Below are positions 14,077 through 43,529 of a stretch of 64,000 nt of DNA, piece after piece. Below the pieces are notes generated by a model, which saw only the letters and a list, made by a program, of their open reading frames with translations, did not search any database and was not told the DNA's origin. The stretch is from an uncultured Anaerolineales bacterium (lineage in GTDB: Bacteria > Chloroflexota > Anaerolineae > B4-G1 > SLSP01): NCBI GenBank assembly GCA_964504195.1, contig CAZDDI010000005.1:1175-65174 (forward strand), given 5' to 3'. How positions within the stretch are numbered: position 1 is the stretch's first letter; every line of letters begins with the position of its first letter. The position numbers were made by a program, and so were the translations under genes.

Positions 14077-14087
14077 CCTGTATCCAG

Positions 14088-24922: not shown

Positions 24923-25321
24923 ATGCCCTACCTGATCCTGGCCTTGCACTTGCTCGGCCTTAGCCTGGCCCCCGGCGCGCTGCGCTGGGTCTTGGCCCCG
25001 ATGTGGGGCGCGGCGGCGGCCCTGGCCTACTTTAAGCCCGACGACCGCGCCGCGACCACGAACTACGTCTACTTCTTCCTTGCCGGGAACGCCGGCCTCA
25101 TCTTTGGCTACCACATCGCCGCGCTGCTCGTCACCGGCACGCCGGAGCCGGGCGCGACAACGCTCTACGGCATCTCGGTGTGGCTGCTGGGCTTCGCCGT
25201 GATGTCTTGTATTGGCTTCTACGCCTACGTCCTGCGCTTTTTATTCTGGGACCGCACCACGCCGTTCTTCGGCGGGCGGCTGCAAAGCCGGGACGTGATC
25301 CAGCAGATCAAGCGACAGTGA
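24923..25321 (+). CDS. Hypothetical integral membrane protein (132 aa)
   Basis: GGAGGATAACCC Shine-Dalgarno. Four predicted transmembrane helices. Confidence 0.55.
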   Translation: MPYLILALHLLGLSLAPGALRWVLAPMWGAAAALAYFKPDDRAATTNYVYFFLAGNAGLIFGYHIAALLVTGTPEPGATTLYGISVWLLGFAVMSCIGFYAYVLRFLFWDRTTPFFGGRLQSRDVIQQIKRQ

Positions 25322-25410: not shown

Positions 25411-28400
25411 ATGACCCATCCCACCTTCAAAATGACCCTGACCCCCGACGGCGCGGCACTGCAAGCCTACGCCTGGGCAGAGAGCGCTGCCGCTTGGCGC
25501 GCGTGGTCGCCCTATGCGCTGCGCATCCTGCGCAAGCCCTACCGCCACGCGCGCACCCACCTGGAACTCACCGATGATGTCGTGAGCACCCTGTACGATC
25601 CGCAGTCCCAGCGCAACACCCCGGCGGCCTTTGGGCTCGCCAATGTGCCCGAACTGGGCCTCGTCCAGGTCTACGGCGGGCTGGCGACGGCAGACTCCCA
25701 AGAACTGGCCGTGCAAACGGCGGCGCTGCACTCCGCGCGCCTGGTCGCCGCGCTGCAAGGTCGCTTCCGGCAGTCGCGGTTCACGCTACTCGCCGCCGAA
25801 GAAGCCACGGCGTTCTACCGGCATCTGTGGGCTTGCCGCTGTACGGCGTCCCTGATCGGGCAACTGGTGCCCCGGATCGCGCCGGGGATGGGCTCCGGGC
25901 ACGGTATCAACCAACTGGTGACCACCGATGTCCAAGAACAACTGGAAGTCATCGCCGCGGCGCTGGCGGGGGAGCCGTTCGCCGTCCTCACCCTGGCGCA
26001 TCCCCTAAACGCGCTGGACATCCGGCAAATGCTGGCGGATACGGCGCAAGCCCTGAGTTACTTCGCTTCCAAAGTAAAGCAGAGCGAGTCGGCGAATATC
26101 AGCGCCGTGCTGCCGCTGTTTATCAACCCCGTGGCGCTGTTCAGCGAGCAGAGCCAGCGCACGACGCAGGTGGCGCGGGGCGACCAGCGGTTGACCAGCG
26201 AGCAAAACGCACACCGCCTGGCCGCCGGGCAGTCCGATGGGGTCACGGCTTACCGGCGAGAAACCGCCAGTAGCGCACAGCATCAGGGCGCGGAACGCAC
26301 GAGTTACCACGAGGAGCAGCGCAGCAGCGAGAACATCCGCGAACACGAAGAAAGCCGCGTCAATCTGGAACGCGACTATGCCGAGGCGTATAGCCTCGCG
26401 CGCTCCTACCAGGGCCGCGAGGCCGGGACGCTGACCACGCAGGGGCAGCGGGACGCCGATCAGACCGGGCAGCGGCAGCAGCACACGGCGGAACAGGGGC
26501 AGTTGCACAGCGTCGAAAGCATTGATGAGCAGGTCGCCGGCGTGCGCTCCGGCGCGGGCAGCCGCTCCAGCGTGGAAGCCTTCAGCGTGGGCGAACGCTA
26601 CGCCGGCGGCAGCAGTCGCGCCTGGCAGGGTAGTTATGATGAACAGACGCAGCGCGCGTTCAGCGGCGCGGGCCAGGAGCACACGGCGGAGGGCTATCGG
26701 CAAGCCGAGCAGCGCGCCGGCAGCCTGGTCAGCGGCGAGACCTTTGCGCGCACGACAGAAAACACGGTGCAGGGCGAGGGGGCACAGCTGCAGACCTACG
26801 CCGAGCGCGGCGTCGAAGGCGACCTCTCGCCGCGTGTTTTCGGCATCGGCGGCGGGGAAGTCATGGCGGCGGGCGAACGCGGCCATCTCACGCAGAGCCG
26901 CGACTCCGAACTGGCCCAGGCCGAAGGCGCGGCTAACCTGGTGCGCCAGACGCAGCAGGGCGAGGTGACGACCGGGGCGCAGGTGGCCGACAGCGCCTAC
27001 CAGCGCAGCGGGCAGCAGCAAGAAGGGCTGGGGCAGACCTGGCAAGGCCAGGAAAGTGTGCAGACCGCCGAGTGGCGCAGCGGGGGCGGGACGCGGAGCA
27101 GCCAGCTGGCCTATGGCTACAGTGAAGCCTATCAGGACGCCAGCCACACTGACCGGCAGGCGCAGCGCGCCTGGGACAGTCAGGTAGACCAGGACGCGGC
27201 CTGGCAGCAGGCGACCCGCGAGGGCTACCAGGGCGTCGAGCGTTTCGCGCGGGCGTTCGGCGGCAGTTACAGCGAGGCCGGGCAGCGCAGCGGGCATCTT
27301 TCACAGCAGGATGTGATCACTGCCGACCGCAACCTACAACGTGAGACCGAGCGCGTGCTGGACGGGTTCCGCGCAGAGACCTTCGCCGGGCACCGCGACA
27401 GCCAGGAGCAGGTGGCCGGCGTGGAAGCGCGGCAGGATGCCAAGATCGGCGCGGGGCGCGAGTTCGTGCAGGCCCAGGCCGCCGAACAGGTGGGGACGGC
27501 GGTAAGCGCCGCGGGGCGCACGCAGGTAACGACGCGCGGCGTCATGGGGCCGTCGGGCGGCTCGCTGGTGGCCGGGCTGGCCTTTGCGCGCCAGACCGTG
27601 GATATGCAGCGCGATCTGGTGGCGCAGTTGCTCGAGCAGCAGGTGCAGCGCCTGAACGCCGGGCTGGACACGGGGCTGTTCCTGACGCAGGTGACGCTGC
27701 TGGCCCCCGATGAATCCCGGCTGGAACGGCTGGCCGCCGCCGCGGTCGCCGCGATGCGCGAGGAGCACGTCGTGGTGCCGGTCGCGGTGCGCTCCGGGGA
27801 TGCGACGCTCTGGCAGCGCGCGGTGGCGCTGGACTTTGATGCGCGCCGCGAAGATGCCGCCGCCGGGCCGTTCGAGGCGTTGCGCCACGCGCAAACGCTC
27901 ACCGCCAACGAACTGGCGGCACTGGTGCATCCCATCAGGATTTCCGATGGGACCATTTCGGCCTCGCTGGACGCCTGGCCCGATGACCTCTCGCACCGGC
28001 GCACGCAGGGCGAGATCGCGCTGGGCCGGGTACTGGATGTGAACTTGCAGCCCGATTCTAACAACATCCACCGCTTTCGCGCCGATGAACTGATGCACGC
28101 CGTCATTGTGGGCGACTCCGGGTCAGGCAAGTCCAATTCGGCCTTGTGGTTTGTGTCGCAGGTAGTCAACGCTGTGCGCCAGGACGCGCAGGGCGACCCC
28201 CTCCCCGCGCCGACCACCGGGCCGGTGACGCCGCTGGCCCTGGGCGGGACGCCGCGCATCGGGGTGACGGTCTTCGATCCCACCGGGGAATGGCGCAAGT
28301 TGGGCAAGTTGATCCCGGCGGCGGACTTCCGGTACTACTCGCTGACGGATCCGCAGACGTATCCGTTACGGTTCAACCCCTTGCGCATCCCCAGCCCCTA

Positions 28401-29373
28401 CCTGGAACCGGCGAAGTGGGCGGCGGCGCTGGCGAAGCAGTGGCTGCTGGCGTACCCCGCCGGGGCGACGGGCTTCCACCACCTCAAGGGCGCGGTGCTC
28501 GACGCCTACCGCGCAGCGGGGGTCATCGAGCCGGACGGCAGCGCGCACCTGGAACGCTCGGCGAATCTGTGTATGGCCGACCTGCAACACGCCCTGGCCG
28601 CGCGCCTGGAGAAACTCCGCGAGGAGCGCAGCGATACGATTACGGCGGGGGTGGTCAAGCGCATTCTCGACAAGTTGGAAGAATTCCTGCCCGGCGGGGC
28701 GTATCACCGGGCCTTCGGGCAACCGGGTGGCACGACGGTGGTCGAGTGGACGGCTCCTGACAAGGCTACCGTGATCACCGGTAAGTTCGGCGATGACGGG
28801 CCGCTCAAGCAGTTCATCATCGGCCTGATGGTAGCAGGCATCTACCAGCACGCGGACGAGCGGTATGAGCATTACCTGCGCCAGCGGCGCACGATTCCGC
28901 AGCATTTGCTCTTCGTCGAGGAGGCCCATGTGGTGATGCGCTCGGACGCGAGTACCCAGACGGAAATCGCGCAAGCCATTGGCGAGGACGCCGGGCTGTG
29001 GAACAACATCACCGACCGGGGGCGGAAACTGGGGCTGTATCTGTGGACGTCGGCGCAGCATTGGGAGCCGTTGCCGGCGGGGGTAGTAACATCGAGCAGT
29101 ATTGCGATTATCCAGAAGGTAAGTACAATCAAAGATGCTGAGATCGCAGTCTCGAAGGCGGGGCGGCTACCGGGAAAGACCAGTATTGACGACTACTCGA
29201 AGTGGACGCTGAGTGTGCTCAATATGCCTACCGGGGTCGGCTACGTCCGGCGCACGCGGAAGACGCTCAGCCAGGAAGACGAGATGGAGATCTTCCCGGT
29301 GAACTTCGTGGATATTTCGGGGATTGCGCCGCCGTCGGATGCGGAGTTGGGGAGGATTGTGGTGAGGAAGTAA
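25411..29373 (+). CDS. Large protein (1320 aa): N-terminal domain, ~600-aa Q/E/R/G/A-rich low-complexity region, C-terminal HerA/VirB4-like (DUF87-type) P-loop ATPase
   Basis: Walker A AVIVGDSGSGKS. Walker B LLFVEEAH. GAGAGGTAATCC Shine-Dalgarno at the 25411 start; the listed ORF start at 25180 overlaps the previous gene. Confidence 0.6.
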   Translation: MTHPTFKMTLTPDGAALQAYAWAESAAAWRAWSPYALRILRKPYRHARTHLELTDDVVSTLYDPQSQRNTPAAFGLANVPELGLVQVYGGLATADSQELAVQTAALHSARLVAALQGRFRQSRFTLLAAEEATAFYRHLWACRCTASLIGQLVPRIAPGMGSGHGINQLVTTDVQEQLEVIAAALAGEPFAVLTLAHPLNALDIRQMLADTAQALSYFASKVKQSESANISAVLPLFINPVALFSEQSQRTTQVARGDQRLTSEQNAHRLAAGQSDGVTAYRRETASSAQHQGAERTSYHEEQRSSENIREHEESRVNLERDYAEAYSLARSYQGREAGTLTTQGQRDADQTGQRQQHTAEQGQLHSVESIDEQVAGVRSGAGSRSSVEAFSVGERYAGGSSRAWQGSYDEQTQRAFSGAGQEHTAEGYRQAEQRAGSLVSGETFARTTENTVQGEGAQLQTYAERGVEGDLSPRVFGIGGGEVMAAGERGHLTQSRDSELAQAEGAANLVRQTQQGEVTTGAQVADSAYQRSGQQQEGLGQTWQGQESVQTAEWRSGGGTRSSQLAYGYSEAYQDASHTDRQAQRAWDSQVDQDAAWQQATREGYQGVERFARAFGGSYSEAGQRSGHLSQQDVITADRNLQRETERVLDGFRAETFAGHRDSQEQVAGVEARQDAKIGAGREFVQAQAAEQVGTAVSAAGRTQVTTRGVMGPSGGSLVAGLAFARQTVDMQRDLVAQLLEQQVQRLNAGLDTGLFLTQVTLLAPDESRLERLAAAAVAAMREEHVVVPVAVRSGDATLWQRAVALDFDARREDAAAGPFEALRHAQTLTANELAALVHPIRISDGTISASLDAWPDDLSHRRTQGEIALGRVLDVNLQPDSNNIHRFRADELMHAVIVGDSGSGKSNSALWFVSQVVNAVRQDAQGDPLPAPTTGPVTPLALGGTPRIGVTVFDPTGEWRKLGKLIPAADFRYYSLTDPQTYPLRFNPLRIPSPYLEPAKWAAALAKQWLLAYPAGATGFHHLKGAVLDAYRAAGVIEPDGSAHLERSANLCMADLQHALAARLEKLREERSDTITAGVVKRILDKLEEFLPGGAYHRAFGQPGGTTVVEWTAPDKATVITGKFGDDGPLKQFIIGLMVAGIYQHADERYEHYLRQRRTIPQHLLFVEEAHVVMRSDASTQTEIAQAIGEDAGLWNNITDRGRKLGLYLWTSAQHWEPLPAGVVTSSSIAIIQKVSTIKDAEIAVSKAGRLPGKTSIDDYSKWTLSVLNMPTGVGYVRRTRKTLSQEDEMEIFPVNFVDISGIAPPSDAELGRIVVRK

Positions 29374-29482
29374 GGCAGGATGCGGTGCAAGATATTTTGA
29401 AATGAACTGGTATGCACCAGCTGCGGATATTGGGTGTAGGGGCTAGAAAATTTGACTTTTAGTTGAACTACTATATTATTGT

Positions 29483-29520
29483 GGACATGGCTCAAAACCC
29501 TGGAGAAGTCAGTTTGACAC
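29483..29520 (+). mobile_element. Solo terminal inverted repeat related to the IS at 36929-38532
   Basis: GGACATGGCTCAAAACCCTGGAGAAGTCAGTTTGACAC is ~34/36 identical to the reverse complement of that IS's right IR. The tip faces outward, to the left. Confidence 0.6.
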
Positions 29521-29541
29521 TTTCTGAAATAAGGAAATCTT

Positions 29542-31032
29542 ATGAACACAGCAAATTATATTTTACAATATGGTCAAGACGAAACTATAGCAATTATCAC
29601 AGAAAAATCCCAATATACCTACAAAGATCTGCGGAGTGCTGTGAACAAAATCGCTACCAAAATTCTAAGTATTGGAATTCTGCCTGGCGATGCAGTTGGA
29701 CTGCTTAGCGCAAACTCTTTGTTTTGGGTGGCTTCATATTTAGCCATTATGAAAATAGGGGGTATTGCAGTACCCTTTTCAACAACTTTGACAACAAAAC
29801 AATTTCAGCAAGCAGAGAGTTTTATTAAATGTAAGGCGATTTGTTTGCAGGAACTTTATCGTAGTAGATATGTGAGTGCATTAAAAAACAAACTGCCAAT
29901 AGTTAGCGAAAACATCCTGTTACCAACTGATTCAATGACGGTCGAAGAATCGCCGGAGACGGTGATAACTGATCCAGAGCAAGATGCAGCTTTCATGCTA
30001 ACTTCTGGAACAACTTCAGAGCCTAAGGTCGTGAGAGTTTCACATGAGAATATTCAATCGAATACCGAATCAATAATCAGCTATTTGGAAATCACTAATT
30101 CAGATCGCATAATGGTCATTCTTCCCTTCTTCTATTGCTTTGGTACATCTTTGTTGCATACACACTTGAGAGCGGGGGGCTCGCTTGTTATAAGCAATCG
30201 TTTTGCTTTCCCAGAAACCGTATTGAACTTGATGGAAACATATAATTGTACAGGCTTTGCTGGGGTGCCATCTACATATCAGATACTTCTCAGAAATACT
30301 ACTTTTCCCAAGCGTAAGCTGCCAATGTTAAAAAAAATCCAACAAGCTGGGGGAAAACTACCTTCTGTTCTCATAAAAGAGTTAAGGGCTATTTTGCCGG
30401 ATTCTAACATCTATATTATGTATGGACAAACAGAAGCTACAGCTCGACTATCGTATTTACACCCCGAAATGCTTGAAAGAAAATTAGGTTCAATAGGCAA
30501 GGGAATTCCAGGTGTTGAGTTGCGTGTAGTAGGAAGTCAAGGTATTGATGTTAGCCACGGTGAAGTTGGTGAAATCGTTGCAAAAGGAAAGAACATCACA
30601 AAAGGGTACTTGAATGATCTGCAAGCAACTGCGGTGAAGTTTAGAGACGGTAATCTGTATACAGGAGATTTAGCTACAGTAGATGAAGATGGCTTTATCT
30701 ATATCGTTGATCGTTCGAGTGATTTTATTAAATCATATGGACATCGAGTTAGTAGTCAACAGATTGAAGGTTGCATTTCAGAACTTCAAGATGTTATAAG
30801 CACAGCAGTTATTGGTGTTCAAGACGTTGTTCGAGGAGAAGCTATAGTAGCTTATGTAACTTTACATAAGAAATCTATTCTTTCTTCTGAGAATATAATC
30901 GCACACTGCAGACAAACACTACCAAGTTATATGATTCCGCGTGATGTGATCGTAGTAAGTGATCTGCCTATGAACGAACAGGGAAAGATATTGAAATCGG
31001 CACTCAAACAACAAGTCTTGGGTGAATTGTAG
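29542..31032 (+). CDS. AMP-dependent synthetase/ligase (acyl-CoA or acyl-ACP synthetase family)
   Basis: MLTSGTTSEPK (AMP-binding core), YGQTEA, and YTGDLA...DEDGFIYIVDRSSDFIKSYG motifs. AT-rich codon usage. Confidence 0.8.
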   Translation: MNTANYILQYGQDETIAIITEKSQYTYKDLRSAVNKIATKILSIGILPGDAVGLLSANSLFWVASYLAIMKIGGIAVPFSTTLTTKQFQQAESFIKCKAICLQELYRSRYVSALKNKLPIVSENILLPTDSMTVEESPETVITDPEQDAAFMLTSGTTSEPKVVRVSHENIQSNTESIISYLEITNSDRIMVILPFFYCFGTSLLHTHLRAGGSLVISNRFAFPETVLNLMETYNCTGFAGVPSTYQILLRNTTFPKRKLPMLKKIQQAGGKLPSVLIKELRAILPDSNIYIMYGQTEATARLSYLHPEMLERKLGSIGKGIPGVELRVVGSQGIDVSHGEVGEIVAKGKNITKGYLNDLQATAVKFRDGNLYTGDLATVDEDGFIYIVDRSSDFIKSYGHRVSSQQIEGCISELQDVISTAVIGVQDVVRGEAIVAYVTLHKKSILSSENIIAHCRQTLPSYMIPRDVIVVSDLPMNEQGKILKSALKQQVLGEL

Positions 31033-31049
31033 AGGGAGTTTAATATTCT

Positions 31050-33035
31050 ATGTGTGGTATTGCGGGTGCGATAGACCTAACTGGTGATAATCAGAATCCA
31101 TTTCCTGACGTTCGAACAATGGTTTCTATGTTAAAACATCGTGGCCCGGAAACTACGGGAGTCTACCATAGTAAATTTGTACACTTTGCTCATGCTCGGT
31201 TAAGCATTATTGACCTAGAAGGCGGTTTACAACCTATACCAAATGAAGATCGTACGCTTTGGGTAATCTGTAATGGGGAGTTTTATAATTTTATAGAGCT
31301 ACGAGAATTTCTGACAGCCAAAGGCCATCAATTCCTCACCGCTTCCGATACAGAAGTTCTTTTACACTTATATGAAGAAATAGGGGATGAGGCTGTAAAC
31401 AAACTTAACGGACAGTTTGGATTCGCTCTTTGGGATAGTGTTCGCCGCCGGCTATTACTTGGCCGAGATCGCTTTGGTATTCGCCCCCTCTTTTATGCAG
31501 TGAAGGACAATTATTTGCTGTTCGCGTCCGAAGTGAAGGCATTACTGGCTGCCAAAATCCAAACTCGCGTCGATTTTCATTCCTTAGCTCAAGTGTTTAC
31601 AACTTGGTCCCCCTTACCTGGAAAAACTATGTTAAAAGATGTATCTGAGGTTTTGCCTGGTCATATAGTCACGGTTAAGGTGGGAGAGGGAGTTGAATCG
31701 CGACCATATTGGCAATTGCAATTTCCAGCTAAAGAAGAAAGGCTTGACGGAGAAAAACTTGCTATCGAGGTAGAATCTATAAGAGAGGCGCTAACTAATG
31801 CTGTAAAGATTCGATTGAGAGCAGATGTACCAGTTGGTGCCTACCTAAGCGGAGGCCTGGATTCAACTTTTATCACGAGTCTTGCTCAAAAGATGAGTAA
31901 TCATCCTTTACATACTTTTTCTATTACATTTGATGATCCAGAATTTGACGAGAGTGAGTATCAATATCAAGTTGCTCACGAAATAGGTACAATTCACCAT
32001 ATTGTAAAATGCGATGTGCAAACAATTCGCAGAAATCTGCCGGACGTTGTATGGCACACTGAAACACCAGTACTTCGATTAGCTCCCGTTCCTATGTACC
32101 TTTTAGCACAATTAGTAAACCAACACAAGATAAAAGTGGTATTGACAGGTGAAGGTGCTGATGAATTTTTTGGAGGTTACGATATTTTTCGAGAAGCAAT
32201 GGTCCGACGTTTTATAGCCAGGGACCCTACTTCCAATATCAGACCTTTATTACTGAAGAGGTTATATGCTCACCTGCCTAATTTAAGCAAGCTCAGCCCT
32301 TCTTTGCTAAAAAAGTTTTATTGTAGAGATTCTGATAACTTATCCTCACCATACTATAGCCATACGCTTAGATGGGATAATACTTACCGTGCTTCTCGCC
32401 TGTTCTCCAAAGAACTTCTTCAGTATTTGCAGGATTATAATGTAATTGATGATATATCCACTTTGGTACCCAAACAAATAGAACAATGGTCTTCTCTTTC
32501 CCAAGCGCAGTACTTGGAAAGCGTTTTCTTCTTATCAAGCTACCTACTATCTTCTCAGGGAGATCGTATGGCTATGGCTCATGCAGTCGAAGGGCGATAT
32601 CCTTTCTTAGATCACCGACTTATAGAGTTGATTAATCAAATGCCTTCAAGATTTAAAATCAATGGGCTGCGGGGCGAAAAGTACATTCTCAAGTTAGCCT
32701 CCAGGGGATTGGTGCCTGATGTTATTAGATCTCGTTCAAAGTATCCTTATCGAGCTCCTGTTCAAAGTGTGTTTTCTAATCTTGCATTGCCCGATTATGC
32801 AAAGGAACTGTTATCAACAGTGAAATTGAAGACAAGTGGCTGCTTTGATCCGGTATTTGTACAAGAACTTGTAAAGAAGATACAAGAAGCACGATTCGTC
32901 GGGGAAATGGATCAAATGGCTTTTGTGGGCATTTTAACATATCAGATATTCCATGATCTTTTTATTGAAAAATTCAATGTTTCTGCACAATACAAACAAT
33001 CTGATTTTATAGATGTTACCAAAGTGTGGAATTAA
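31050..33035 (+). CDS. asnB: Asparagine synthetase B-family glutamine-dependent amidotransferase
   Basis: N-terminal MCGIAG with nucleophilic Cys2. PP-loop SGGLDS. 661 aa. Confidence 0.85.
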   Translation: MCGIAGAIDLTGDNQNPFPDVRTMVSMLKHRGPETTGVYHSKFVHFAHARLSIIDLEGGLQPIPNEDRTLWVICNGEFYNFIELREFLTAKGHQFLTASDTEVLLHLYEEIGDEAVNKLNGQFGFALWDSVRRRLLLGRDRFGIRPLFYAVKDNYLLFASEVKALLAAKIQTRVDFHSLAQVFTTWSPLPGKTMLKDVSEVLPGHIVTVKVGEGVESRPYWQLQFPAKEERLDGEKLAIEVESIREALTNAVKIRLRADVPVGAYLSGGLDSTFITSLAQKMSNHPLHTFSITFDDPEFDESEYQYQVAHEIGTIHHIVKCDVQTIRRNLPDVVWHTETPVLRLAPVPMYLLAQLVNQHKIKVVLTGEGADEFFGGYDIFREAMVRRFIARDPTSNIRPLLLKRLYAHLPNLSKLSPSLLKKFYCRDSDNLSSPYYSHTLRWDNTYRASRLFSKELLQYLQDYNVIDDISTLVPKQIEQWSSLSQAQYLESVFFLSSYLLSSQGDRMAMAHAVEGRYPFLDHRLIELINQMPSRFKINGLRGEKYILKLASRGLVPDVIRSRSKYPYRAPVQSVFSNLALPDYAKELLSTVKLKTSGCFDPVFVQELVKKIQEARFVGEMDQMAFVGILTYQIFHDLFIEKFNVSAQYKQSDFIDVTKVWN

Positions 33036-33055
33036 GCTGTTTTTAGGAGAGAAAT

Positions 33056-34030
33056 ATGAATTTCAACAAAGACATACTAGTTATTGACCCTGTTCACGAA
33101 GTAGAAAGGCTATCTGCGCTTATTCATGAATCACTTTTCAATAGATTCAAACGCAAAGGGGCTGTAATAGGAGTTAGTGGTGGAGTAGATTCCGCTACAA
33201 CACTGGCATTAGTTGTAAGAGCTATCGGGGCAGAAAACGTAATTGCGATAGCGATGCCAGATCAAGATTCCAATCCTGTGAGCGAAATTTTGGGAAAAGA
33301 TATCGCTACTAAATTCGGTGCATCTTTTGTCAAAGAAGACATAACACCGGTCCTTATCTCGCTCAAATGTTATGAACACCGCGATTCTGCTGTACGCAAA
33401 GTCTTCCCAGATTACAATCCAGATACAGATGGAATAAAATTAGTTTTGCCTACTGATTTATTGGGTAAAGGCAGTTTGAACGTATATTCTTTGGCGCTAG
33501 TTCGTAATGGAGAAGAGATTGGCCGACGTATTCTTCCCGCCCCCGTGTATCTAGAAATTGTAGCAGCATCAAATATGAAGCAGAGAACTCGTATGTTGAC
33601 ACTTTATTATCATGCTGAAAAACGGAATTACGCTGTTATAGGAACTGCTAACAAGAATGAACATGCGCAAGGTTTCTTCGTTAAGTATGGCGACGGAGGT
33701 GTTGATATACAACCTATTTTACACTTATACAAAACGCAGATTTATCAACTGGCGCAATACTTAAATGTGCCACAGGAAATAATAGATCGAACACCTACAA
33801 GTGATACTTACAGCGCTGAATGTACGCAAGAAGAATTCTATTTCAGACTCCCCTTTGAACTTATGGATTTGATCTGGTATGGATTTGAGCATGAGGTTTC
33901 TCCTGAAATAGTTGCTAATGAACTAAACCTTGCTACCAAACAGGTAGAAAACGTATATAGGGATCTAGCTCAAAAAGCAAGAAGCACTGAATACTTGCGT
34001 ATGGTTCCAATTACTAGCAATTCCAACTAA
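33056..34030 (+). CDS. NAD synthetase (NadE)-family PP-loop ATP pyrophosphatase / amidating enzyme
   Basis: GVSGGVDS PP-loop. YGDGGVDIQPI...LYKTQIYQLAQYLNVP matches the NadE-family C-terminal signature. Confidence 0.7.
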   Translation: MNFNKDILVIDPVHEVERLSALIHESLFNRFKRKGAVIGVSGGVDSATTLALVVRAIGAENVIAIAMPDQDSNPVSEILGKDIATKFGASFVKEDITPVLISLKCYEHRDSAVRKVFPDYNPDTDGIKLVLPTDLLGKGSLNVYSLALVRNGEEIGRRILPAPVYLEIVAASNMKQRTRMLTLYYHAEKRNYAVIGTANKNEHAQGFFVKYGDGGVDIQPILHLYKTQIYQLAQYLNVPQEIIDRTPTSDTYSAECTQEEFYFRLPFELMDLIWYGFEHEVSPEIVANELNLATKQVENVYRDLAQKARSTEYLRMVPITSNSN

Positions 34031-34078
34031 TCGAATTCTTAAATGTTTCTAAATCAATGACCCAGGGAGTGTAAGAAC

Positions 34079-34321
34079 GTGGAGATTAAAAACCGTATAC
34101 GTGAATTCATTATTACAAATTTTGTCACGGCTTCGGGAGTCTTTATAGATGACACTACTGCTTTGTTAGAGTCAGGTATTATTGACTCTACAGGTGTCAT
34201 GGAGATGCTACTCTTTGTCGAGGAAGAGTTTGATATCGAAGTTCCCCCCGAAGATCTTCTGCCTGAGAATTTTAACTCAATTGCAGGCTTGGCTGACTAT
34301 ATACAAAGAAAACTCACTTGA
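34079..34321 (+). CDS. Acyl carrier protein-like (phosphopantetheine-binding)
   Basis: 80 aa. LESGIIDSTGVMEML has the DSxxxxE-type Ser attachment motif. Apparent GTG start. Confidence 0.6.
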   Translation: MEIKNRIREFIITNFVTASGVFIDDTTALLESGIIDSTGVMEMLLFVEEEFDIEVPPEDLLPENFNSIAGLADYIQRKLT

Positions 34322-34355
34322 TCTTTCTCAGATTTAGATATTAAGGAGGGGAAAA

Positions 34356-35138
34356 ATGAGTTCCGCACAACTCAATTTTAGAGTTAACAAACCGGAGAAC
34401 ACAATCCGGATAGTATTTGTACATCATTCAACTGGGAGAAACCTAATACAACAGGGCGAAGTTCGGGAGTTAATGCAGACTCAAGCGTCGAGGACTGCGA
34501 TGCATTATGAATTTTGGGACCAAGACTATAACAAGATTGGTTTAAGTGATGCGTCTGGCAGCAAACTTGGGATAACTTTAAATATGCCAGGAGATAATAC
34601 TGACCCAGATGGGTTAGAAGCATTGTTTAGTCAACCAATTCATACTCCTCCAGACAATGCCTTAAGTGCTCTTCTCACTTTTGATGTGGTGATTTTCAAG
34701 TCTTGCTATCCAGTTTCAGCGATTCATAATGAGGAACAGTTGGAGCGTTACAAGCAGCACTATTTACGAATACGAGAGACCATGTTAGCAAATCCACAAA
34801 CCTTTTTTGTGGTTATGACTCCTCCTCCATTAATACCAAAACCATTTCCTGTATTTCCCGGGTCTTCTACTACACCAGAAGAAGCAAGGCGCGCAAGAGA
34901 GTTCGCAAATTGGTTAACGTCTGGAGAATTCATAGCAGAACTATCTAATGTTGCTGTTTTCGACTTTTTTGATTATTTAGCTGCGCCTGATGATTCTTCA
35001 AAACAAGCAAATATGCTCCGTGCAGAATATCGAAGCCTCTTAGGGTTTGATTCACACCCAAATTCGACCGCAAACAAAGCAGTCGCTCCGCTATTTGTGG
35101 ATTTTATCGTTAAAGGGATTCAACAATTCTTCAACTGA
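34356..35138 (+). CDS. SGNH/GDSL-hydrolase-like protein, cytoplasmic paralog (tentative fold call)
   Basis: AAGGAGGGG Shine-Dalgarno. Blocks VFVHHSTG, MPGDNTD (GxND-like) and DSHP (Asp/His-like) resemble the SGNH blocks I, III and V. Confidence 0.55.
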   Translation: MSSAQLNFRVNKPENTIRIVFVHHSTGRNLIQQGEVRELMQTQASRTAMHYEFWDQDYNKIGLSDASGSKLGITLNMPGDNTDPDGLEALFSQPIHTPPDNALSALLTFDVVIFKSCYPVSAIHNEEQLERYKQHYLRIRETMLANPQTFFVVMTPPPLIPKPFPVFPGSSTTPEEARRAREFANWLTSGEFIAELSNVAVFDFFDYLAAPDDSSKQANMLRAEYRSLLGFDSHPNSTANKAVAPLFVDFIVKGIQQFFN

Positions 35139-36058
35139 ATCTTCTTATAGCTAGCATTTTGTGACAACTCGTTTAGTTTTTAAGGATGTATTAGATGGTG
35201 AATAGTTCCATAAGTCAGGTTAAAAAAGCAAGATTACTATTTTTCACAATACTTTTGATAATTCTTTTCCTCTTAGGGCGAAGTTGGTTGCGTCCACAAG
35301 AGATATGGCCCTTTATTCTTAATGAAGGACAAAACAAACCGGAGAACACAATCCGGATAGTATTTGTACATCATTCAACTGGGAGAAACCTAATACAACA
35401 GGGCGAAGTTCGGGAGTTAATGCAGACTCAAGCGTCGAGGACTGCGATGCATTATGAATTTTGGGACCAAGACTATAACAAGATTGGTTTAAGTGATGCG
35501 TCTGGCAGCAAACTTGGGATAACTTTAAATATGCCAGGAGATAATACTGACCCAGATGGGTTAGAAGCATTGTTTAGTCAACCAATTCATACTCCTCCAG
35601 ACAATGCCTTAAGTGCTCTTCTCACTTTTGATGTGGTGATTTTCAAGTCTTGCTATCCAGTTTCAGCGATTCATAATGAGGAACAGTTGGAGCGTTACAA
35701 GCAGCACTATTTACGAATACGAGAGACCATGTTAGCAAATCCACAAACCTTTTTTGTGGTTATGACTCCTCCTCCATTAATACCAAAACCATTTCCTGTA
35801 TTTCCCGGGTCTTCTACTACACCAGAAGAAGCAAGGCGCGCAAGAGAGTTCGCAAATTGGTTAACGTCTGGAGAATTCATAGCAGAACTATCTAATGTTG
35901 CTGTTTTCGACTTTTTTGATTATTTAGCTGCGCCTGATGATTCTTCAAAACAAGCAAATATGCTCCGTGCAGAATATCGAAGCCTCTTAGGGTTTGATTC
36001 ACACCCAAATTCGACCGCAAACAAAGCAGTCGCTCCGCTATTTGTGGATTTTATCGTT
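34389..36058 (+). repeat. Tandem gene duplication: ~720-bp near-identical segments (34389-35110 and 35337-36058)
   Basis: Offset of ~948 bp. Identical antisense spurious ORFs at 34384..34623 and 35319..35570. Confidence 0.85.
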
Positions 36059-36091
36059 TCTAGTGTTGAAAAATGGTGTGCAGGTAGATAG
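35195..36091 (+). CDS. SGNH/GDSL-hydrolase-like protein, membrane-anchored paralog
   Basis: Same core as 34356..35138 but with an N-terminal transmembrane anchor KKARLLFFTILLIILFLLG and a different C-terminal tail. Confidence 0.55.
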   Translation: MVNSSISQVKKARLLFFTILLIILFLLGRSWLRPQEIWPFILNEGQNKPENTIRIVFVHHSTGRNLIQQGEVRELMQTQASRTAMHYEFWDQDYNKIGLSDASGSKLGITLNMPGDNTDPDGLEALFSQPIHTPPDNALSALLTFDVVIFKSCYPVSAIHNEEQLERYKQHYLRIRETMLANPQTFFVVMTPPPLIPKPFPVFPGSSTTPEEARRAREFANWLTSGEFIAELSNVAVFDFFDYLAAPDDSSKQANMLRAEYRSLLGFDSHPNSTANKAVAPLFVDFIVSSVEKWCAGR

Positions 36092-36093
36092 CA

Positions 36094-36840
36094 ATGATAG
36101 AGGAAGAAAAAACACCTTTCTGGCAAAAAGCAGGCAAATTCCTACTTCGATGGAGTCTAAGTAAGCATTTTGCCCATATCTATTTGCGTCCCCAGAACTA
36201 CAATATCCCCTATAACAAACCTGTTATGCTGTGTATTAACCACAGTTGCAGATGGGACGTTCCTTTATCGTTATTCTTATCTGAATCTATCCTACAGTTA
36301 GATAGCTATCTTATGGCGGCTCCTCAGGTTATACAAAAATACCCACTTATGTGTAGATTTGGGTGTTTTGAAGCAGATAGCTCTAATCCTATAGAAACTA
36401 CCCGGACTCTTAAATATGCGTCAACTCTTATAAGTGGTAAAAGTGATCGTTGCTTAATCATGTTTCCACAGGGAAGGTATAAGAGAAGCTATCAACGCCC
36501 TTTGGATTTCCGCCCTGGATTTGCTCAAATAGCACGTATAACACGCCCAGTAATCATCCTACCAGTAGCTTTTTATTATGAATACTTCATAGAAAGAATC
36601 CCCGAAGCATTTGTCAGCATAGGTCCTCCGGTGTTTGTTGAATCTCAAATTACGACCAACAAATTAGTCGAAGATGTTGAAGTAGCAGTAACCCGAGAAT
36701 TGGATGCTTTGCAGAAAGATATTACAAATAATCAACTTGATGAATTTATCGCTATACTTGAAGAGCAAAAGAATATGCTTATAAAACTGTGGCATAGATT
36801 TGACTCAGAATGGATAGAGAGAGCTAAACGTACACTTTAA
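36094..36840 (+). CDS. PlsC-family (lysophospholipid / 1-acylglycerol-3-phosphate-type) acyltransferase
   Basis: HxxxxD motif CINHSCRWDVP. ATGA overlap with the upstream gene. Confidence 0.7.
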   Translation: MIEEEKTPFWQKAGKFLLRWSLSKHFAHIYLRPQNYNIPYNKPVMLCINHSCRWDVPLSLFLSESILQLDSYLMAAPQVIQKYPLMCRFGCFEADSSNPIETTRTLKYASTLISGKSDRCLIMFPQGRYKRSYQRPLDFRPGFAQIARITRPVIILPVAFYYEYFIERIPEAFVSIGPPVFVESQITTNKLVEDVEVAVTRELDALQKDITNNQLDEFIAILEEQKNMLIKLWHRFDSEWIERAKRTL

Positions 36841-36928
36841 ACTCTCTGCTAAAGTTATAGAAAACACCATTTTCTTATATTAGGAAATAATAAGGTGTGA
36901 GATCTTGTAAAAACTCAGGGCGTTTTTT

Positions 36929-38532
36929 GGCATGGCTCAGAATCAGTTTGACACTTGGCAAACCGGCAGAAGCCCCGATAATACCGCTAACTTGAAGGGG
37001 GAGGGCTGGGCCATGGCAGCACGAAAATCTTTGTCGGTGACAGAGCGGCGGACGATTGCGGTAAAGATGTTGGACCCGGAACGCCCGCGCGGCACCCCCG
37101 GGCAATTGGCTGAGCAGTATAACCTGAGCCGACAGATGACGTACTATCTGGCGGATCGCGCGGAAAGGGCATTGGACGCGGCCCTGACGCCCCGCTCGGG
37201 GCCAGAGCCGCAGGATACGGTCATCACTGTCACCCCCGCGCGGTTGCGCCGGGCGGTGACCTTGGCGGCGTTGGTGGGCGTGTCGCAACGAGACACCCAG
37301 CTGCTCCTGGCGGAAGTGTTGGACACGCAACGCTCGACAGGGTATGTGGCCCAGGTCCTGGCGCAGGCAGAGCACTTGGCTGCCGCGCGCAACGGCGAAC
37401 TCCAGCTGCCCTTGGCAGGATTGCTGGCCGCGGATGAGCTCTTCTTGCACGCGCAACCGATTCTGGGCGTGGTGCAGCCGGCCAGTTTGTTTATTGCGGA
37501 TCTGCGGCTGACGGCCCACCGCGACGGGACGACGTGGGGCTGCACATTTCTCGACTTACCCGAGGTCGCAGGGGTGATTAGTGATGCTGGAGCGGGCTTG
37601 GCGGCCGGGGGTACCCTGGCCGCAGTTCCCTGTCAGGTGGGGGATTGGTTTCACCCGTTGCTGCAAGCGGCGTATATTGAAGCACAATACGAGCGGCAGG
37701 CTTATGCGGCCTTGGCCAAAGTCTATGCGCGGGAGGAGCAGTTGGCTCAGACCACCACTACGAAACGCTGGGAAAACCATTGGCAACAATACCTGCGTGA
37801 GGACGCCGTCGCCGCCCAAGCCATTGAGCGCTATGACCAATGGCGGCTGTTGCGGTGGCAGTTGCGCGCGTTGGCGGGGCAGTTTGACTGGGATACCGGG
37901 GCGGTACGTCAGCCGGAGACGGTGCAAGCGCACCTGCTGCTGCTGGCCGACCGCTTGGCCCCGTGGGCCGTGGGCACGCTGGCTCAGGCGCTGGTCCGCT
38001 TGCTGCGCACCCAAGCCGCAGCCTTGACCGTGGGACTGCCGCAACTGGCCCAAGCCCTGCAGCCGTTGGCGCAAGCTTGGGGAGCAGAGGCCGTCCGTGT
38101 GGTCTGCCGCCTGAGCCAAGCGTTGCACGAAGCTGCCTGTCCGGCCTGGTTGCCAGCGCAACGCCGCCACCTGGAACAGGCCATCACAGAGAGCCTCGCT
38201 TGGGCCAGTGCCTACCTGGGGCCCCATCTGGCGACCCTGCAACGCCTGCTGGCGGCCATCTTGGCCTACTGGCCGCGCACCAGCAGTGCCATCGAGTGCC
38301 TGAATAGCCTGTTGCGCCCGTATTTGAACGGCCGCAAGCAGGTCGATCAAGGGTTTCTGGACCTCTTCCGTTTCTATCATAACACCCATTGCTTTGTGCG
38401 GGGCAAGCGTGCGGGGGCCACGCCCCTGGAATTGGCCGGTGGTCCGGCGATTCCCGACCCGCTCGCCTTCCTCGGCCTCGGAGCAAAATCCTGATTTGTC
38501 AAACTGACTTCCCTAGGGTTTTGAGCCATGCC
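36929..38532 (+). mobile_element. Complete insertion sequence, tentatively IS256-like, with perfect 8-bp target-site duplication
   Basis: IRL GGCATGGCTCAGAATCAGTTTGACAC and IRR (reverse complement) GGCATGGCTCAAAACCCTAGGGAAGTCAGTTTGACA. Flanking direct repeat CGTTTTTT at 36921-36928 and 38533-38540. The body is GC-rich inside the AT-rich island. Confidence 0.7.
37010..38494 (+). CDS. Transposase (C-terminal TSSAIECLNSLLR resembles the IS256/mutator TTNxIExLN signature)
   Basis: Annotated ORF is 36932..38494. The ATG at 37010 has a GGGGGAGGG Shine-Dalgarno. N-terminal HTH-like segment. Confidence 0.65.
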   Translation, partial: AMAARKSLSVTERRTIAVKMLDPERPRGTPGQLAEQYNLSRQMTYYLADRAERALDAALTPRSGPEPQDTVITVTPARLRRAVTLAALVGVSQRDTQLLLAEVLDTQRSTGYVAQVLAQAEHLAAARNGELQLPLAGLLAADELFLHAQPILGVVQPASLFIADLRLTAHRDGTTWGCTFLDLPEVAGVISDAGAGLAAGGTLAAVPCQVGDWFHPLLQAAYIEAQYERQAYAALAKVYAREEQLAQTTTTKRWENHWQQYLREDAVAAQAIERYDQWRLLRWQLRALAGQFDWDTGAVRQPETVQAHLLLLADRLAPWAVGTLAQALVRLLRTQAAALTVGLPQLAQALQPLAQAWGAEAVRVVCRLSQALHEAACPAWLPAQRRHLEQAITESLAWASAYLGPHLATLQRLLAAILAYWPRTSSAIECLNSLLRPYLNGRKQVDQGFLDLFRFYHNTHCFVRGKRAGATPLELAGGPAIPDPLAFLGLGAKS

Positions 38533-40019
38533 CGTTTTTTGACTTCGAATTTTTTCTTGTTCTTGTGTATAGACCCTACCCATCCCGCCGCCAGTAACAT
38601 GCACCGTTGGGTCGCTTAATAATATTGTTTGGCACGCAAAAAGTTATTCGTTAAGAAAAGTGGTAATTCTTTATGTGTAACTTTTTTGAGGGGGTTTTAC
38701 TAGGATATCTTGAAGCAGCATTTAGAGCATGGAAAGACATGTTATTTGAAGAATTCTCTTGAAAGAAGTTTTTCTGTTCACCATTGATTGTTGCGTTATG
38801 GGTAATTATTCTAGGTCCTATGGTTGTTCCCTGATGGTCACTACATATTAGACATTATCGGAAATAAGGATTTGCAACTTGAATCATAAAATGTTCATAG
38901 TAAATTTTTAGCAATATAATACAAGGTTGTATTTGCGGTGTACTCACCCCATTTTAAGCAGGGAACATACTCTTATTCTTGCGCTATCACATAAAAAAAC
39001 AATCTTTACTACAAAACCTTTCACAAGGTGTGCCCCGCGAGATTTATTGCCTCATTGTCACATTATCAAGGATATTTTAAGCGGTATTACCACAGATTTT
39101 TAAGAAATAGCGATGGAGTTCTTCATAGATTGCACAACTTGTTTATTTTATTGCGCAAGATAAGATATTTCGTTTTATTTTTAATTTGCGTGGAATATCA
39201 AAAAATTATTTAAGATAATGTCTATTGATTGGAGCCAGCGCAGTAGGAATGGAGCGGATTACCTTGAAACATGGAAAGCGTTATTACGAAAGCCTCCTAG
39301 TAAATTTATGCAAAAAGAAAGAGATACTAGATGGTTACTCAAAAAAAATAACTCGCTTCTTAAGTTGTGGAGATAATTAACAGCCACTGATATCAAACAG
39401 AGTTATGTGAATAGTTTCTCAAAGCGACAGATTTACATATCTAATTCTATATCAGATTAAGTAATAAATATAGTTTGCGTATTTTAAAAATAATCTTTAA
39501 ATGAAGAAAATCACAGTAATAGGAAGTGGTAATGTCGGCGGTTCTATAGCCCAACGGCTTGCAGATGCGGGGGGAGTTAATATTGTCCTGGTTGACAGAC
39601 TTGGGGATTTAGCGCGAGGAAAAAGCCTTGACCTTTATGAGTCCCTGCCCCTTATTGGTATAGATACTGATATCGTTGGTACTTCAAATTATGAGGAGAC
39701 AGCAGAATCGGATGTTGTAATCATCACAGCAGGCATTCCGCGCAAATCGAAAATGACGAGGAATGATTTACTGGATTCGAATGCGGAAATTGTTGCGGAG
39801 TGTGTATCGGCAGCTATCGAGTATTCTCCCAATAGTATTTTACTCATAGTAACTAACCCAGTATGTGCTATGTCTCATGTGGCTTACATCGCCAGCAAAT
39901 TCCCCAAACAACGTGTTATTGGGTTGTCTGGTTTGTTAGATACATCACGTATGAGAGCTTTTATAGCTACCGAAATTGGTGTTTCTGTGGAGAGCATTCA
40001 GGCACTTGTAATAGGTGAC

Positions 40020-41212: not shown

Positions 41213-41955
41213 ATAGGTGACCATAGTGACAACATGCTACCCCTTACAAATTATTCCAATATTGCAGGTATTCCTCTCTCTGAGATAATGACCGGAGAAC
41301 AGATAGAGCGAGTTATAGTTCATACTAAAAATAGCGGAACCGAAATTGTAAATTTGTTAAAGACGGGAAGTGCTTATTACGCCCCTTCGGCTGCTGTGCT
41401 TGAGATCGTGGACTCCATTTTGAAAGACAAGAAAAAAATACTTCCTTGTGCGGTTTATCTAGAAGGCGAATTTGGAATCAATGATACCTTTATTGGGGTA
41501 CCGGCAAAAATCGGTAGGGGTGGTGTGGAACAAGTCTTCGAAATCATCCTTAGTATGGACGAAATAACATTGTTACAAAAGTCAGCGAATTCCATAAAGC
41601 AAATTGTTAATACACTAGGTCGGGTGGGGTGATGAAAGTGGTGGATCCAAACTGGGTCTTTAACTGCCTTCGGCGACGCGGGACGCGCCGCCGAAACTTG
41701 GATGAAACCGGCCAGCTCCTCGGCATGCAAGCGACTTTTGGCTGGCGACTTACCCGTCGCTTCATTCGACAGCTTTGCCCGCCACTTGCGCGCGCTGTGT
41801 GTGACTCAAAAACTAACTCAAGAGACCTGCTCTAGTGTACTGGACTTTCTATTCGAAAAAATCACTTTGCTATCACTCTCTATCCCATGCTACAATAAAA
41901 CCATAACACTGTAACCAACGCTCACCGCAGGAACCTCCATGCCTGCACATCCAAA

Positions 41956-42002
41956 GGGGAGGCCGCGACAATGCCCGGTATTGTTGCGACCTCCCCTTTT
42001 TT
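41956..42002 (+). terminator. Rho-independent terminator
   Basis: GGGGAGGCCGCGACAAT...ATTGTTGCGACCTCCCC followed by TTTTTT, at the right edge of the AT-rich island. Confidence 0.6.
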
Positions 42003-42035
42003 GTTGTCCCCAATCCCATACCCAGGAGTCACAAC

Positions 42036-42587: not shown

Positions 42588-42588
42588 G

Positions 42589-43248: not shown

Positions 43249-43256
43249 AACTCGAC

Positions 43257-43286
43257 TTGCATCCGCCCCCGGCGGTATGGTATAGT
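43257..43286 (+). promoter_or_regulatory. Sigma-70-like promoter with extended -10
   Basis: TTGCAT (43257-43262), 18-nt spacer, TGgTATAGT (43278-43286). Confidence 0.4.
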
Positions 43287-43292
43287 AAAAGA

Positions 43293-43487
43293 GGCGCGCA
43301 GGAACGGCCTGCGTCGCCCCGCGGGATGCCGTAAAGCGCACCCGTAATACACGCAGAGCGGGAATCCTACCAGCCCGCTGGCCCGGTGGCGCCGCGTAAA
43401 CCGCGCGCTCGGGCAATTCACTATAGGGGAGGCCCAGGACTGCCCGGAGTAATCCACTCCGGCACAGTCCGGGCCTCCCCATTTTTG
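43293..43487 (+). ncRNA. Candidate ~195-nt small RNA or terminated 5' leader (promoter to intrinsic terminator)
   Basis: Bounded upstream by the promoter above. Ends in a long hairpin GGGGAGGCCCAGGACTGCCCGGAGT-aatcc-ACTCCGGCACAGTCCGGGCCTCCCC (43427-43480) followed by ATTTTT. No credible ORF on either strand. Confidence 0.35.
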
Positions 43488-43529
43488 TAGCTATTCGCCA
43501 TCCAGTCCTGTTACGGAGTGTAGCCGGGG

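Follow-up and report, generated by a model that had tools for sequence, protein, structure and literature searches.

A predicted three-part HerA-clade ATPase encoded with Tad pilus genes in an uncultured Anaerolineales bacterium

The window described here is a stretch of 64,000 nucleotides of DNA from an uncultured Anaerolineales bacterium of the phylum Chloroflexota (contig CAZDDI010000005.1, positions 1,175 to 65,174 of the forward strand), and all coordinates are counted from its first letter. It carries a gene for a giant ATPase, in which an N-terminal alpha/beta domain and a polar central domain precede a predicted HerA-clade P-loop ATPase region. The family to which this divergent protein belongs is catalogued but uncharacterised. 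Its gene is situated directly downstream of a gene for a small membrane protein, in a conserved cluster that further includes a putative DNA-processing enzyme and the genes of a Tad pilus. This arrangement points, tentatively, to a role in the transfer of DNA.

The giant ATPase gene and its product

The gene and the parts of its product are as follows, with the basis of each assignment in parentheses.
25411..29373, + strand: giant three-part ATPase, 1320 amino acids (aa) (open reading frame and translation)
25411..26196, + strand: N-terminal alpha/beta domain, aa 1-262, folded core at ~aa 4-235, family-specific (AlphaFold2, AF2)
26197..27525, + strand: central A/Q/G/E/R/S-rich domain, aa 263-705 (composition, ratio of nonsynonymous to synonymous substitution rates (dN/dS), period-2 alternation)
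27526..29370, + strand: predicted C-terminal HerA-clade ATPase region, aa 706-1320 (family profile against PDB sequences)
28111..28134, + strand: Walker A motif GDSGSGKS, aa 901-908 (invariant G901, S903, G904, S905, G906, K907 and S908)
28906..28929, + strand: Walker B motif LLFVEEAH, aa 1166-1173 (invariant E1170, E1171, A1172 and H1173)
29014..29028, + strand: DRGRK motif, aa 1202-1206, equivalent to the EGRK of HerA (invariant D1202, G1204, R1205 and K1206)

The open reading frame and both Walker motifs, which had been reported in a preliminary description of this DNA, were confirmed. The same description took the ATPase to be the C-terminal third; the conserved C-terminal region makes up 47% of the protein. 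The search for relatives yielded 22 homologues with identities of 30-90%. The 13 homologues that were aligned start at or near MTHPTF/TFxMTL, and the ATG at 25411 rather than the upstream GTG at 25180 is therefore the likely start. The guanine plus cytosine (GC) content at the three codon positions, 0.70/0.49/0.81, fits a real gene in a GC-rich genome. Walker A, Walker B and DRGRK are invariant or nearly so among 14 homologues, and hydropathy reveals no true transmembrane (TM) segment in the protein. We also note that two close homologues, at loci L019 and L025, look truncated or split (open reading frames of 341 aa and 675 aa; P0024, 613 aa), which may reflect pseudogenes or assembly frameshifts.

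The C-terminal ATPase region

A profile of 66 family members was compared with the PDB sequences. It matches 8yho (E = 2.4e-20) and 8wiv (8.7e-18), the further HerA-family structures 9c1m, 8xau, 8ziq, 8j4u and TdpA, Sulfolobus HerA 4d2i (7.6e-11) and DptH (1e-8). The match to FtsK (8e-4) is confined to the P-loop and spans 44 residues; EccC is matched at E = 0.013, VirD4-type proteins at ~0.8, and no VirB4 chain is found at E ≤ 1. The Walker B motif aligns with the FEEAH motif of solved HerA proteins, and DRGRK with EGRKFG/EGRKYG in 8yho and 8wiv. On these profile matches the C-terminal half is predicted to be a HerA-clade P-loop ATPase of the FtsK-HerA superfamily. The earlier wording, HerA/VirB4-like, holds for HerA and not for VirB4. 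The outcome that was named beforehand as speaking against the description, placement in a routine housekeeping FtsK family, did not occur: the traits of FtsK, SpoIIIE or TraB are not seen, with FtsK similarity at the P-loop only and a TM anchor absent from the protein.

Searches with less sensitive or narrower models returned little. A phmmer search of the PDB sequences with the giant ATPase alone gave nothing, and Pfam gave no match on the full-length protein. DUF87 (PF01935) scores 18.0 bits on the C-terminal fragment, below its cut-off of 23.2. The CagE, AAA_10 and TraC models of Pfam match neither the giant ATPase nor 10 relatives from the serine-rich branch of the family, and in these 10 Pfam finds nothing meaningful, DUF87 included. 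The HerA models of PADLOC give weak matches that cover the ATPase core only (best 2.6e-7).

The AF2 model of the C-terminal domain, built from 9 sequences, is poor (predicted local distance difference test, pLDDT, 54), with a confident core at aa 910-1170. Foldseek with this low-confidence model retrieves DndH-C, VirB4 (4ag5, 2.3e-5), Cag-beta (9e-5), TrwK (4e-4), HerA and TrwB (7e-3), and HerA, DptH and VirD4 match as well as VirB4. The fold matches thus appear to indicate membership in the superfamily only, with no discrimination within it. Residues 706-900, where HerA has its HAS-barrel, are conserved and are modelled at pLDDT <50.

No relatives were found in a phage database, nor in IMG/VR when searched with a family alignment. 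The reading as a prophage or packaging ATPase was dropped because the phage collections hold no relatives; a terminase match in PHROG covers the P-loop only.

The central domain

The central tract comprises 443 aa (residues 263-705), in place of the ~600 aa estimated at first. Its main constituents are A (14%), Q (13%), G (12%), E (10%), R (9%) and S (9%); it contains a single Pro and a single Lys, carries a net charge of -21, and 14% of its residues are hydrophobic. The compositional bias is moderate, since the sequence entropy is 3.68 bits as compared with 3.96 and 4.04 in the flanks.

Comparison with homologues indicates that the tract is conserved, at an identity only slightly under that of the flanking domains. 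The identities of the N-terminal, middle and C-terminal regions are 95/79/94% to P0001, 45/40/64% to P0017 and 33/22/36% to P0022. Among paralogues and orthologues at 89-95% identity, dN/dS is 0.065-0.17 in the central tract, 0.04-0.10 in the N-terminal domain and 0.045-0.09 in the C-terminal domain. These ratios argue for purifying selection on the central tract comparable in strength to that on the flanking domains, and the tract is a sequence-constrained domain, no plain linker.

The tract had been described as free of repeat periodicity. This holds at the level of DNA, where Tandem Repeats Finder detects no tandem repeats in the gene; the protein sequence shows a period-2 alternation. Mean identity is 0.102 at even lags versus 0.070 at odd lags (z = 7.4, a value that none of 1000 shuffles attained), and the register is kept across at least 40 residues. 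The alternation is absent in the N-terminal and C-terminal domains. One phase is occupied by bulky, charged or aromatic residues (E, R, Y, F, W) and the other by small residues (A, S, G, Q, T), and the phase switches near aa 543. All Chloroflexota-type spacers tested give the even/odd-lag signal (z 4.2-8.7). In the serine-rich (Clostridia-type) branch, the S/G/T-rich spacers show it to an extreme degree, with 0.21-0.26 at even lags and 0.03-0.09 at odd lags; these spacers consist of ~8-residue units, for example G-T-S-x-S-x-S-x. The alternation together with the near absence of proline suggests an extended beta-type structure for the central tract. The label of low complexity is accordingly to be narrowed to a moderate bias, in a sequence-constrained domain with alternating residues.

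A profile of the central domain finds no match among the PDB sequences. The Ser-rich spacer gave marginal profile matches (E ~0.1) to the pore stems in anthrax protective antigen and CDTb, which were judged compositional.

The N-terminal domain

The AF2 model of the N-terminal domain, built from 66 sequences, has a mean pLDDT of 77 and a folded core at aa 4-235. Foldseek finds no significant neighbour of this model in PDB (best E = 0.076) or BFVD. The region proposed at the outset for a structure check is thus predicted to fold, and no structural relative was detected in these two databases. Resemblances to chains of the R388 type IV secretion system (T4SS) (Foldseek probability 0.4-0.66, template-modelling score 0.28) and to HUH nickase domains of Rep/NS1 (template-modelling score <0.26) are not significant and were not used.

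Family and distribution

The giant ATPase matches the NCBIfam model NF033849, 'ser_rich_anae_1', with E = 5.1e-107 and 358.6 bits, and the alignment extends from residue 29 to 1316 of the protein and from position 21 to 1162 of the 1163 in the model. The curated cut-off of 650 bits is not reached, and we regard the protein as a homologue of NF033849 that is no member under the curated rule. Serine accounts for 9% of the central 443 aa, compared with ~20-33% in representatives outside the Chloroflexota-type branch. The giant ATPase belongs to a divergent branch from Chloroflexota, whose spacer is rich in Q, E, R, G and A and not in S, G and T.

An exhaustive search with the profile of the C-terminal domain gave 938 representatives up to E = 1e-3. 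With the limit set at 1e-10 there are 258, which are clusters at 50% identity, and with the limit at 1e-30 there are 94. According to the profiles of the N-terminal and C-terminal domains, the combination of N-terminal domain, polar spacer of ~160-770 aa and C-terminal ATPase occurs in 109 of the 117 long representatives. It follows that this fusion is the architecture by which the family is defined. The NF033849 family shares with the giant ATPase the same three parts and the same neighbours, namely the gene for a small TM protein on the upstream side and Tad genes on the downstream side, and differs in its hosts, which are anaerobic Bacillota rather than Chloroflexota. The closest relatives, at 77-90% identity, come from Chloroflexus and from metagenome-assembled genomes (MAGs) of Anaerolineae and Chloroflexia. 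A tblastn search of PLSDB places relatives of the ATPase on four plasmid replicons (five records), none of them from Cutibacterium. A full-text literature search found no paper on the family or its module.

The membrane partner and the conserved module

The following features accompany the giant ATPase gene in the window.
6660..7184, + strand: 174-aa protein with an N-terminal anchor or signal (orthologues in L004, L011 and L012 beside the relaxase-like gene)
7174..8418, + strand: winged helix-turn-helix and PD-(D/E)xK protein, 414 aa, putative DNA-processing enzyme (hhalign; invariant D, E, K)
8415..8696, + strand: small hydrophobic protein, 93 aa, with a hydrophobic hairpin (orthologues in L004, L012 and L025)
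8907-10154, + strand: AAA_25 helicase (Pfam AAA_25, 4e-32)
10367-11560, + strand: CHC2/Toprim primase (Zn_ribbon_DnaG, 2e-16)
24923..25321, + strand: small membrane partner, 132 aa, 3-4 TM segments (hydropathy, alignment, synteny)
42036..42587, + strand: lipoprotein, 183 aa (lipobox and signal sequence)
42571..44081, + strand: two ParA/KGGVG-type ATPases, 225 aa and 183 aa (NCBIfam AAA_KGGVGR and ParA; motif GAKGGVG)
44118..45029, + strand: CpaB-like pilus assembly protein, 303 aa (TIGR03177, weak)
45154-46521, + strand: TadZ-like ATPase (Pfam AAA_31, CbiA and ParA)
46628-47962, + strand: CpaF/TadA ATPase (T2SSE, 6e-43)
56363..60124, + strand: TadB, TadC, Flp prepilin (58409-58690; prepilin motif GLLEY) and three TadE-like pseudopilins (T2SSF twice, TadE and Tad)

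The TM protein is encoded directly upstream of the ATPase in all 34 Chloroflexota loci and, within the serine-rich (Clostridia-type) branch, in 69 of 72 loci from metagenomes. The 132-aa protein of the window and the small protein encoded ahead of the serine-rich genes are homologues across phyla. In the more distant Chloroflexota loci L004, L006, L011 and L012, the genes upstream encode, in order, proteins of ~175 aa, ~430 aa and ~80 aa, the TM protein and the giant ATPase, and those downstream the lipoprotein, two ParA-like ATPases, CpaB-like protein, TadZ, CpaF, TadB, TadC, Flp and TadE. All of these module genes are present in the window in unchanged order, split by three insertions. The lipoprotein gene, which comes right after the ATPase in the related loci, was matched at 42126-42575 of the window by tblastn with the lipoproteins of L004, L006 and L012. 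The ParA/KGGVG-type ATPases are kept in 13-15 loci, and the CpaB-like protein has orthologues both in L011, namely its SAF-domain protein, and in the Clostridia-type loci, namely hyp279. The envelope proteins of 93 aa and 174 aa may be channel or pilin-like components.

The Clostridia megaplasmids pRUMAL01 of R. albus 7 (421 kb) and pB6464 of Alkaliphilus (436 kb) have the same synteny, with genes for DnaE, primase, single-stranded DNA-binding protein (SSB) and topoisomerase IA adjacent. Counts were made in 80 metagenome loci from gut, rumen and fermenters, each gene with its own denominator: the relaxase-like gene of ~480 aa is present in 52 of 57, SSB in 49 of 51, TadZ in 50 of 56, CpaF in 36 of 51 and TadB in 35 of 47. 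The SSB is part of the module mainly in Clostridia-type loci and in one Chloroflexota locus, and primase, helicase or DnaE genes are often near. The helicase and primase of the window fall in the primase/helicase families of PHROG and are replication genes of the element. The co-linearity with a Tad cluster (tadZ, cpaF/tadA, tadB, tadC, flp, tadE) is seen in the window, the Chloroflexota loci, the metagenome loci and the megaplasmids.

Two ParA/KGGVG ATPases just downstream of the giant ATPase, and hosts that are megaplasmids of 0.4-0.9 Mb, could suggest that the protein serves maintenance of the element, as an FtsK-like pump for segregation or resolution or as a helicase for replication or repair, together with the adjacent ParA-like ATPases. 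The layout of FtsK likewise consists of an anchor, a long linker and a motor. However, the giant ATPase has no TM segment and its FtsK similarity is confined to the P-loop, ParA proteins of the TadZ type normally position pilus machines, and maintenance leaves the strict pairing with the TM protein and the Tad co-linearity unexplained; we consider this role decidedly unlikely.

The same gene set could alternatively serve the import of DNA, in which a Tad pilus, the HerA-type motor and the TM partner would take up DNA and SSB would coat the incoming strand. The conservation of SSB is compatible with this. In archaea, CedB, CedA1 and CedA2 take up DNA in cooperation with Ups pili, which are of type IV (PMC9905601), and tad genes were reported to be necessary for transformation of M. 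luteus, according to a statement cited in PMC5696575. However, the module is located on plasmids and on elements present in several copies, which have replication genes of their own as well as a relaxase-like protein, and this fits self-transfer better; ComEC, ComEA and DprA-like genes are not seen in the Pfam tables of the loci L004, L006 and L012. Import is therefore given a small probability.

The relaxase-like neighbour

The 414-aa protein at 7174..8418 was aligned by hhalign with the Clostridia-type family hyp481 at a probability of 96.5% (E = 8.6e-10). The alignments of the 414-aa proteins and of the ~480-aa proteins both contain a winged-helix region followed by a core of the PD-(D/E)xK type, with invariant D, E and K in the arrangements PDL...EVE...K and PDI...EYE...K. 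Matches of the relaxase-like proteins to MarR-type winged helix-turn-helix proteins are marginal. The window protein alone has no match in PDB or Pfam, PF13814 (Replic_Relax) included, and is tied to Replic_Relax only through its Clostridia-type homologues. PF13814 corresponds to the MobC relaxase superfamily (PMC5357655). The homologues suggest that the 414-aa neighbour is a distant Replic_Relax/MOBC-like protein, which we treat as a lead.

Insertions, cargo and signs of mobility

The three insertions that split the module, and the features within them, are as follows.
17835-24548: 2237-aa parallel-beta-helix surface protein, in insertion 1
29450..42030, no strand: low-GC cargo island of 12.6 kb between the ATPase and lipoprotein genes, carrying an insertion sequence (GC content, gene content, synteny)
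40040-41134, - strand: DDE transposase in the low-GC island (gene content)
47990-56360: insertion 3, GC-rich, 8.4 kb, between CpaF and TadB (other loci lack an orthologue)
49109-50134: second RcpC/CpaB-like gene, in the 8.4-kb insert
50053-51369: divergent T2SSE-type ATPase, in the 8.4-kb insert

Insertion 1 lies between the 93-aa gene and the TM gene and comprises the helicase/primase pair, genes of the STAND (signal transduction ATPases with numerous domains) and tetratricopeptide repeat (TPR) types, and the gene for the 2237-aa protein. Within the last, a segment is directly duplicated at a spacing of 1551 nt (95-100% identical) and 18-nt repeats that encode ARISNI lie at 21282-21463; three public contigs with the ATPase gene start inside it. 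The island at 29450..42030, whose insertion point was derived from synteny with related loci, has a GC content of 0.39-0.44 as compared with 0.63-0.70 around it. Its genes encode an AMP-ligase, an AsnB-like amidotransferase, an NAD-synthase-like protein, an acyl carrier protein and an acyltransferase, and it looks like a recently acquired cassette for acyl or amino-acid modification.

Several single MAGs contain 2-4 diverged copies of the TM and ATPase gene pair, with 88-97% aa identity within the MAG (the sets L013/L016/L023, L014/L018/L020 and L026/L035/L036). The synonymous divergence (dS) is ~0.4-0.7 between copies at 89-95% identity, and in one Anaerolineales MAG every copy has its own downstream ParA/CpaB genes. 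MOB-suite, consulted via PLSDB, scores pB6464 and the Pontibacillus plasmid NZ_CP062975.1 as non-mobilizable and pRUMAL01 as mobilizable only. The mobile-element setting proposed in the preliminary description is borne out by a mobile-element-like cluster with helicase and primase. The adjacent giant surface protein, which it had found suggestive, is inserted cargo and is not kept beside the ATPase in other loci.

Proximity to large surface proteins could nevertheless point to an accessory ATPase for protein handling, which would power the secretion or assembly of pilus-associated or large surface proteins or toxins by way of the Tad machine and would move no DNA. Giant surface or RHS-type proteins adjoin the gene in the window (17835-24548) and in L006, the module conserves envelope proteins (the lipoprotein, the anchored 174-aa protein and the CpaB-like protein), and the FtsK-HerA superfamily includes the protein translocase EccC, to which the family profile matches weakly. 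The giant neighbours, however, are unconserved and lie within inserted cargo, whereas the conserved neighbours are DNA-related (SSB, relaxase-like nuclease, primase, DnaE) and the nearest solved relatives are HerA proteins that act on DNA. We therefore attach little probability to protein handling.

Genes of the STAND conflict type occur at 11576-17801 of the window (NB-ARC, AAA_16 with TPR, and TPR only) and in the P0008 loci L001-L003 (nSTAND5, Pkinase-TPR, EAD7-bDLD1 and RlaP). Their presence near the pair may be meaningful or may reflect their abundance in Chloroflexota.

HerA-based anti-phage defence, in the manner of Sir2-HerA, DUF4297-HerA or DndFGH/DptH, was one of the functions that the preliminary description had raised. 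The best PDB relatives stem from defence systems, the PADLOC check gave the weak HerA matches described above, and conflict-type genes are nearby in the window and in L001. Those matches are limited to the ATPase core, the STAND neighbours are unconserved, and the conserved partners are pilus and DNA-processing genes. According to the Pfam content of the neighbours, Sir2, DUF4297, NurA or another effector is adjacent in no examined locus. Defence is the weakest of the alternatives because an effector partner is never adjacent, and we consider it very improbable.

Proposed role in DNA transfer

The reading that we prefer, at slightly under an even chance and on grounds of sequence and gene order, is that the giant ATPase is the motor of a conjugation-like DNA-transfer module that is linked to a Tad pilus and carried on a mobile element. 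On the cytoplasmic side of the membrane, the C-terminal domain would assemble into a hexameric ring like that of HerA, and the N-terminal domain would dock this ring to either the small TM protein or the Tad platform. Processing of the element's DNA would fall to the relaxase-like nuclease, the ring would pump this DNA outward, and the Tad pilus would supply the contact between cells. The central domain would act as a rigid or self-associating beta-rich spacer or conduit rather than a floppy linker.

A broader proposal is that the module represents an unrecognised class of conjugation in monoderm bacteria, which would combine Tad-mediated contact, a MOBC-like nuclease, a HerA motor that pumps DNA and a beta-structured conduit. 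The central domain would then assemble as an extended beta rod, solenoid or barrel and form part of a conduit through the envelope. We give this class-level proposal a real chance, though one clearly less than even.

Several observations weigh against a Tad-linked transfer module. PF13814 is matched by only 5 of 29 members of hyp481 (best E 1.8e-3), and the best score, 16.9 bits, lies below the gathering cut-off of 25.3. Within the window, an origin of transfer (oriT), an integrase or an element boundary was not identified, and a tRNA gene is absent. For the clade to which the window itself belongs (77-90% identity), the distance between the pair of TM and ATPase genes and the Tad genes is usually >10 kb, and because of this distance the pair may work independently of Tad as well. 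Moreover, CpaF and TadB are missing within 10 kb in 10 of the 80 metagenome loci (L048, L050-L056, L058 and L061). These loci, most of them from human gut, also lack TadC within 10 kb and retain SSB, the relaxase-like gene, the TM gene, the ATPase and a TadZ-like gene; the pilus genes of this sub-branch may be elsewhere or lost.

A further case is the Pontibacillus plasmid (898 kb; locus L120, 312-352 kb), in which the ~480-aa relaxase-like gene is directly upstream of a Tad operon. A 999-aa DUF87 ATPase relative and SSB are encoded 10 kb away on the other strand, with TubZ-like and ClpX genes between the relaxase-like/Tad block and the DUF87 ATPase. The plasmid has a T4SS-type gene nearby, annotated as 'Mbov_0395 pilin-like conjugal transfer protein', and because of this gene canonical T4SS components are possible in some elements.

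Comparison with known systems

The giant ATPase shares the Walker A, Walker B and GRK motifs with the HerA ATPases, which include archaeal HerA-NurA and bacterial Sir2-HerA, DUF4297-HerA and TdpA. It differs from them in ~700 extra N-terminal residues and in its partners, which are a membrane protein and a pilus instead of a nuclease or Sir2. TdtA, encoded by ICETh1 of Thermus thermophilus, is a membrane-associated, HerA-like hexamer needed to push DNA out, and like the proposed motor it is a HerA-like ATPase of a mobile element that operates with type IV pilus machinery (PMC5365140). In contrast to the giant ATPase, TdtA is a protein of ~64 kDa without the N-terminal domain and spacer, is encoded with a NurA-like nuclease and uses the pilus of the recipient; the two are likened by description only.

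The archaeal Ced/Ted systems contain the VirB4/HerA-like CedB, small proteins with 2 TM segments, Ups pili and, in their loci, ParA-like ATPases (PMC9905601). They thus resemble the present module in ATPase type, small TM proteins, type IV pilus contact and ParA-like ATPases. Ced differs in that it is a domesticated chromosomal system that imports DNA. Its channel is VirB6-like and its pilin VirB2-like, and no such channel or pilin was found in the giant-ATPase loci.

The coupling proteins and translocases of T4SS and related systems (VirD4/TrwB, TcpA, Streptomyces TraB and VirB4) belong to the same superfamily, and the giant ATPase is likewise encoded beside a relaxase-like gene. Nevertheless, it has no significant sequence similarity to the coupling proteins and no TM anchor. 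Genes for VirB6, VirB8 and the hydrolase are not seen at its loci, and the pilus is of the Tad type (type IVc), not VirB2. The Tad linear plasmids of Cutibacterium acnes (p15.1.R1 and the pIMPLE type), in which transfer ATPases are encoded immediately upstream of tad (PMC5696575; PMC3316620), are mobile elements of monoderms and resemble the present module, with its putative transfer ATPase, in this arrangement. They differ in having recognisable FtsK/TraB-like, VirB4-like and TcpC-like genes. The megaplasmid pXO16 of B. thuringiensis, which is conjugative and atypical with respect to T4SS, was also considered; it gave no tblastn match, and a review describes other genes for it.

Implications

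Conjugation in monoderms is currently detected via VirB4-based T4SS or TraB-type systems, and because detection is based on VirB4 and TraB, a score of non-transmissible is given to many of the large plasmids and integrated elements that Clostridia and Chloroflexota carry. The central domain combines a low-complexity look with strong purifying selection and a two-residue alternation, and its structure could be new. The reading as a transfer motor offers a testable function for a family that NCBI names only "serine-rich protein". If the module moves DNA, it would constitute a new transfer route and would tie Tad pili mechanistically to DNA transfer. Many loci of the family come from human gut, rumen and fermenter metagenomes, which would then be reservoirs of gene flow. 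If the module is indeed a new class, its distribution would be wide among the Clostridia of gut and rumen and among Chloroflexota, unseen by T4SS-based detectors.

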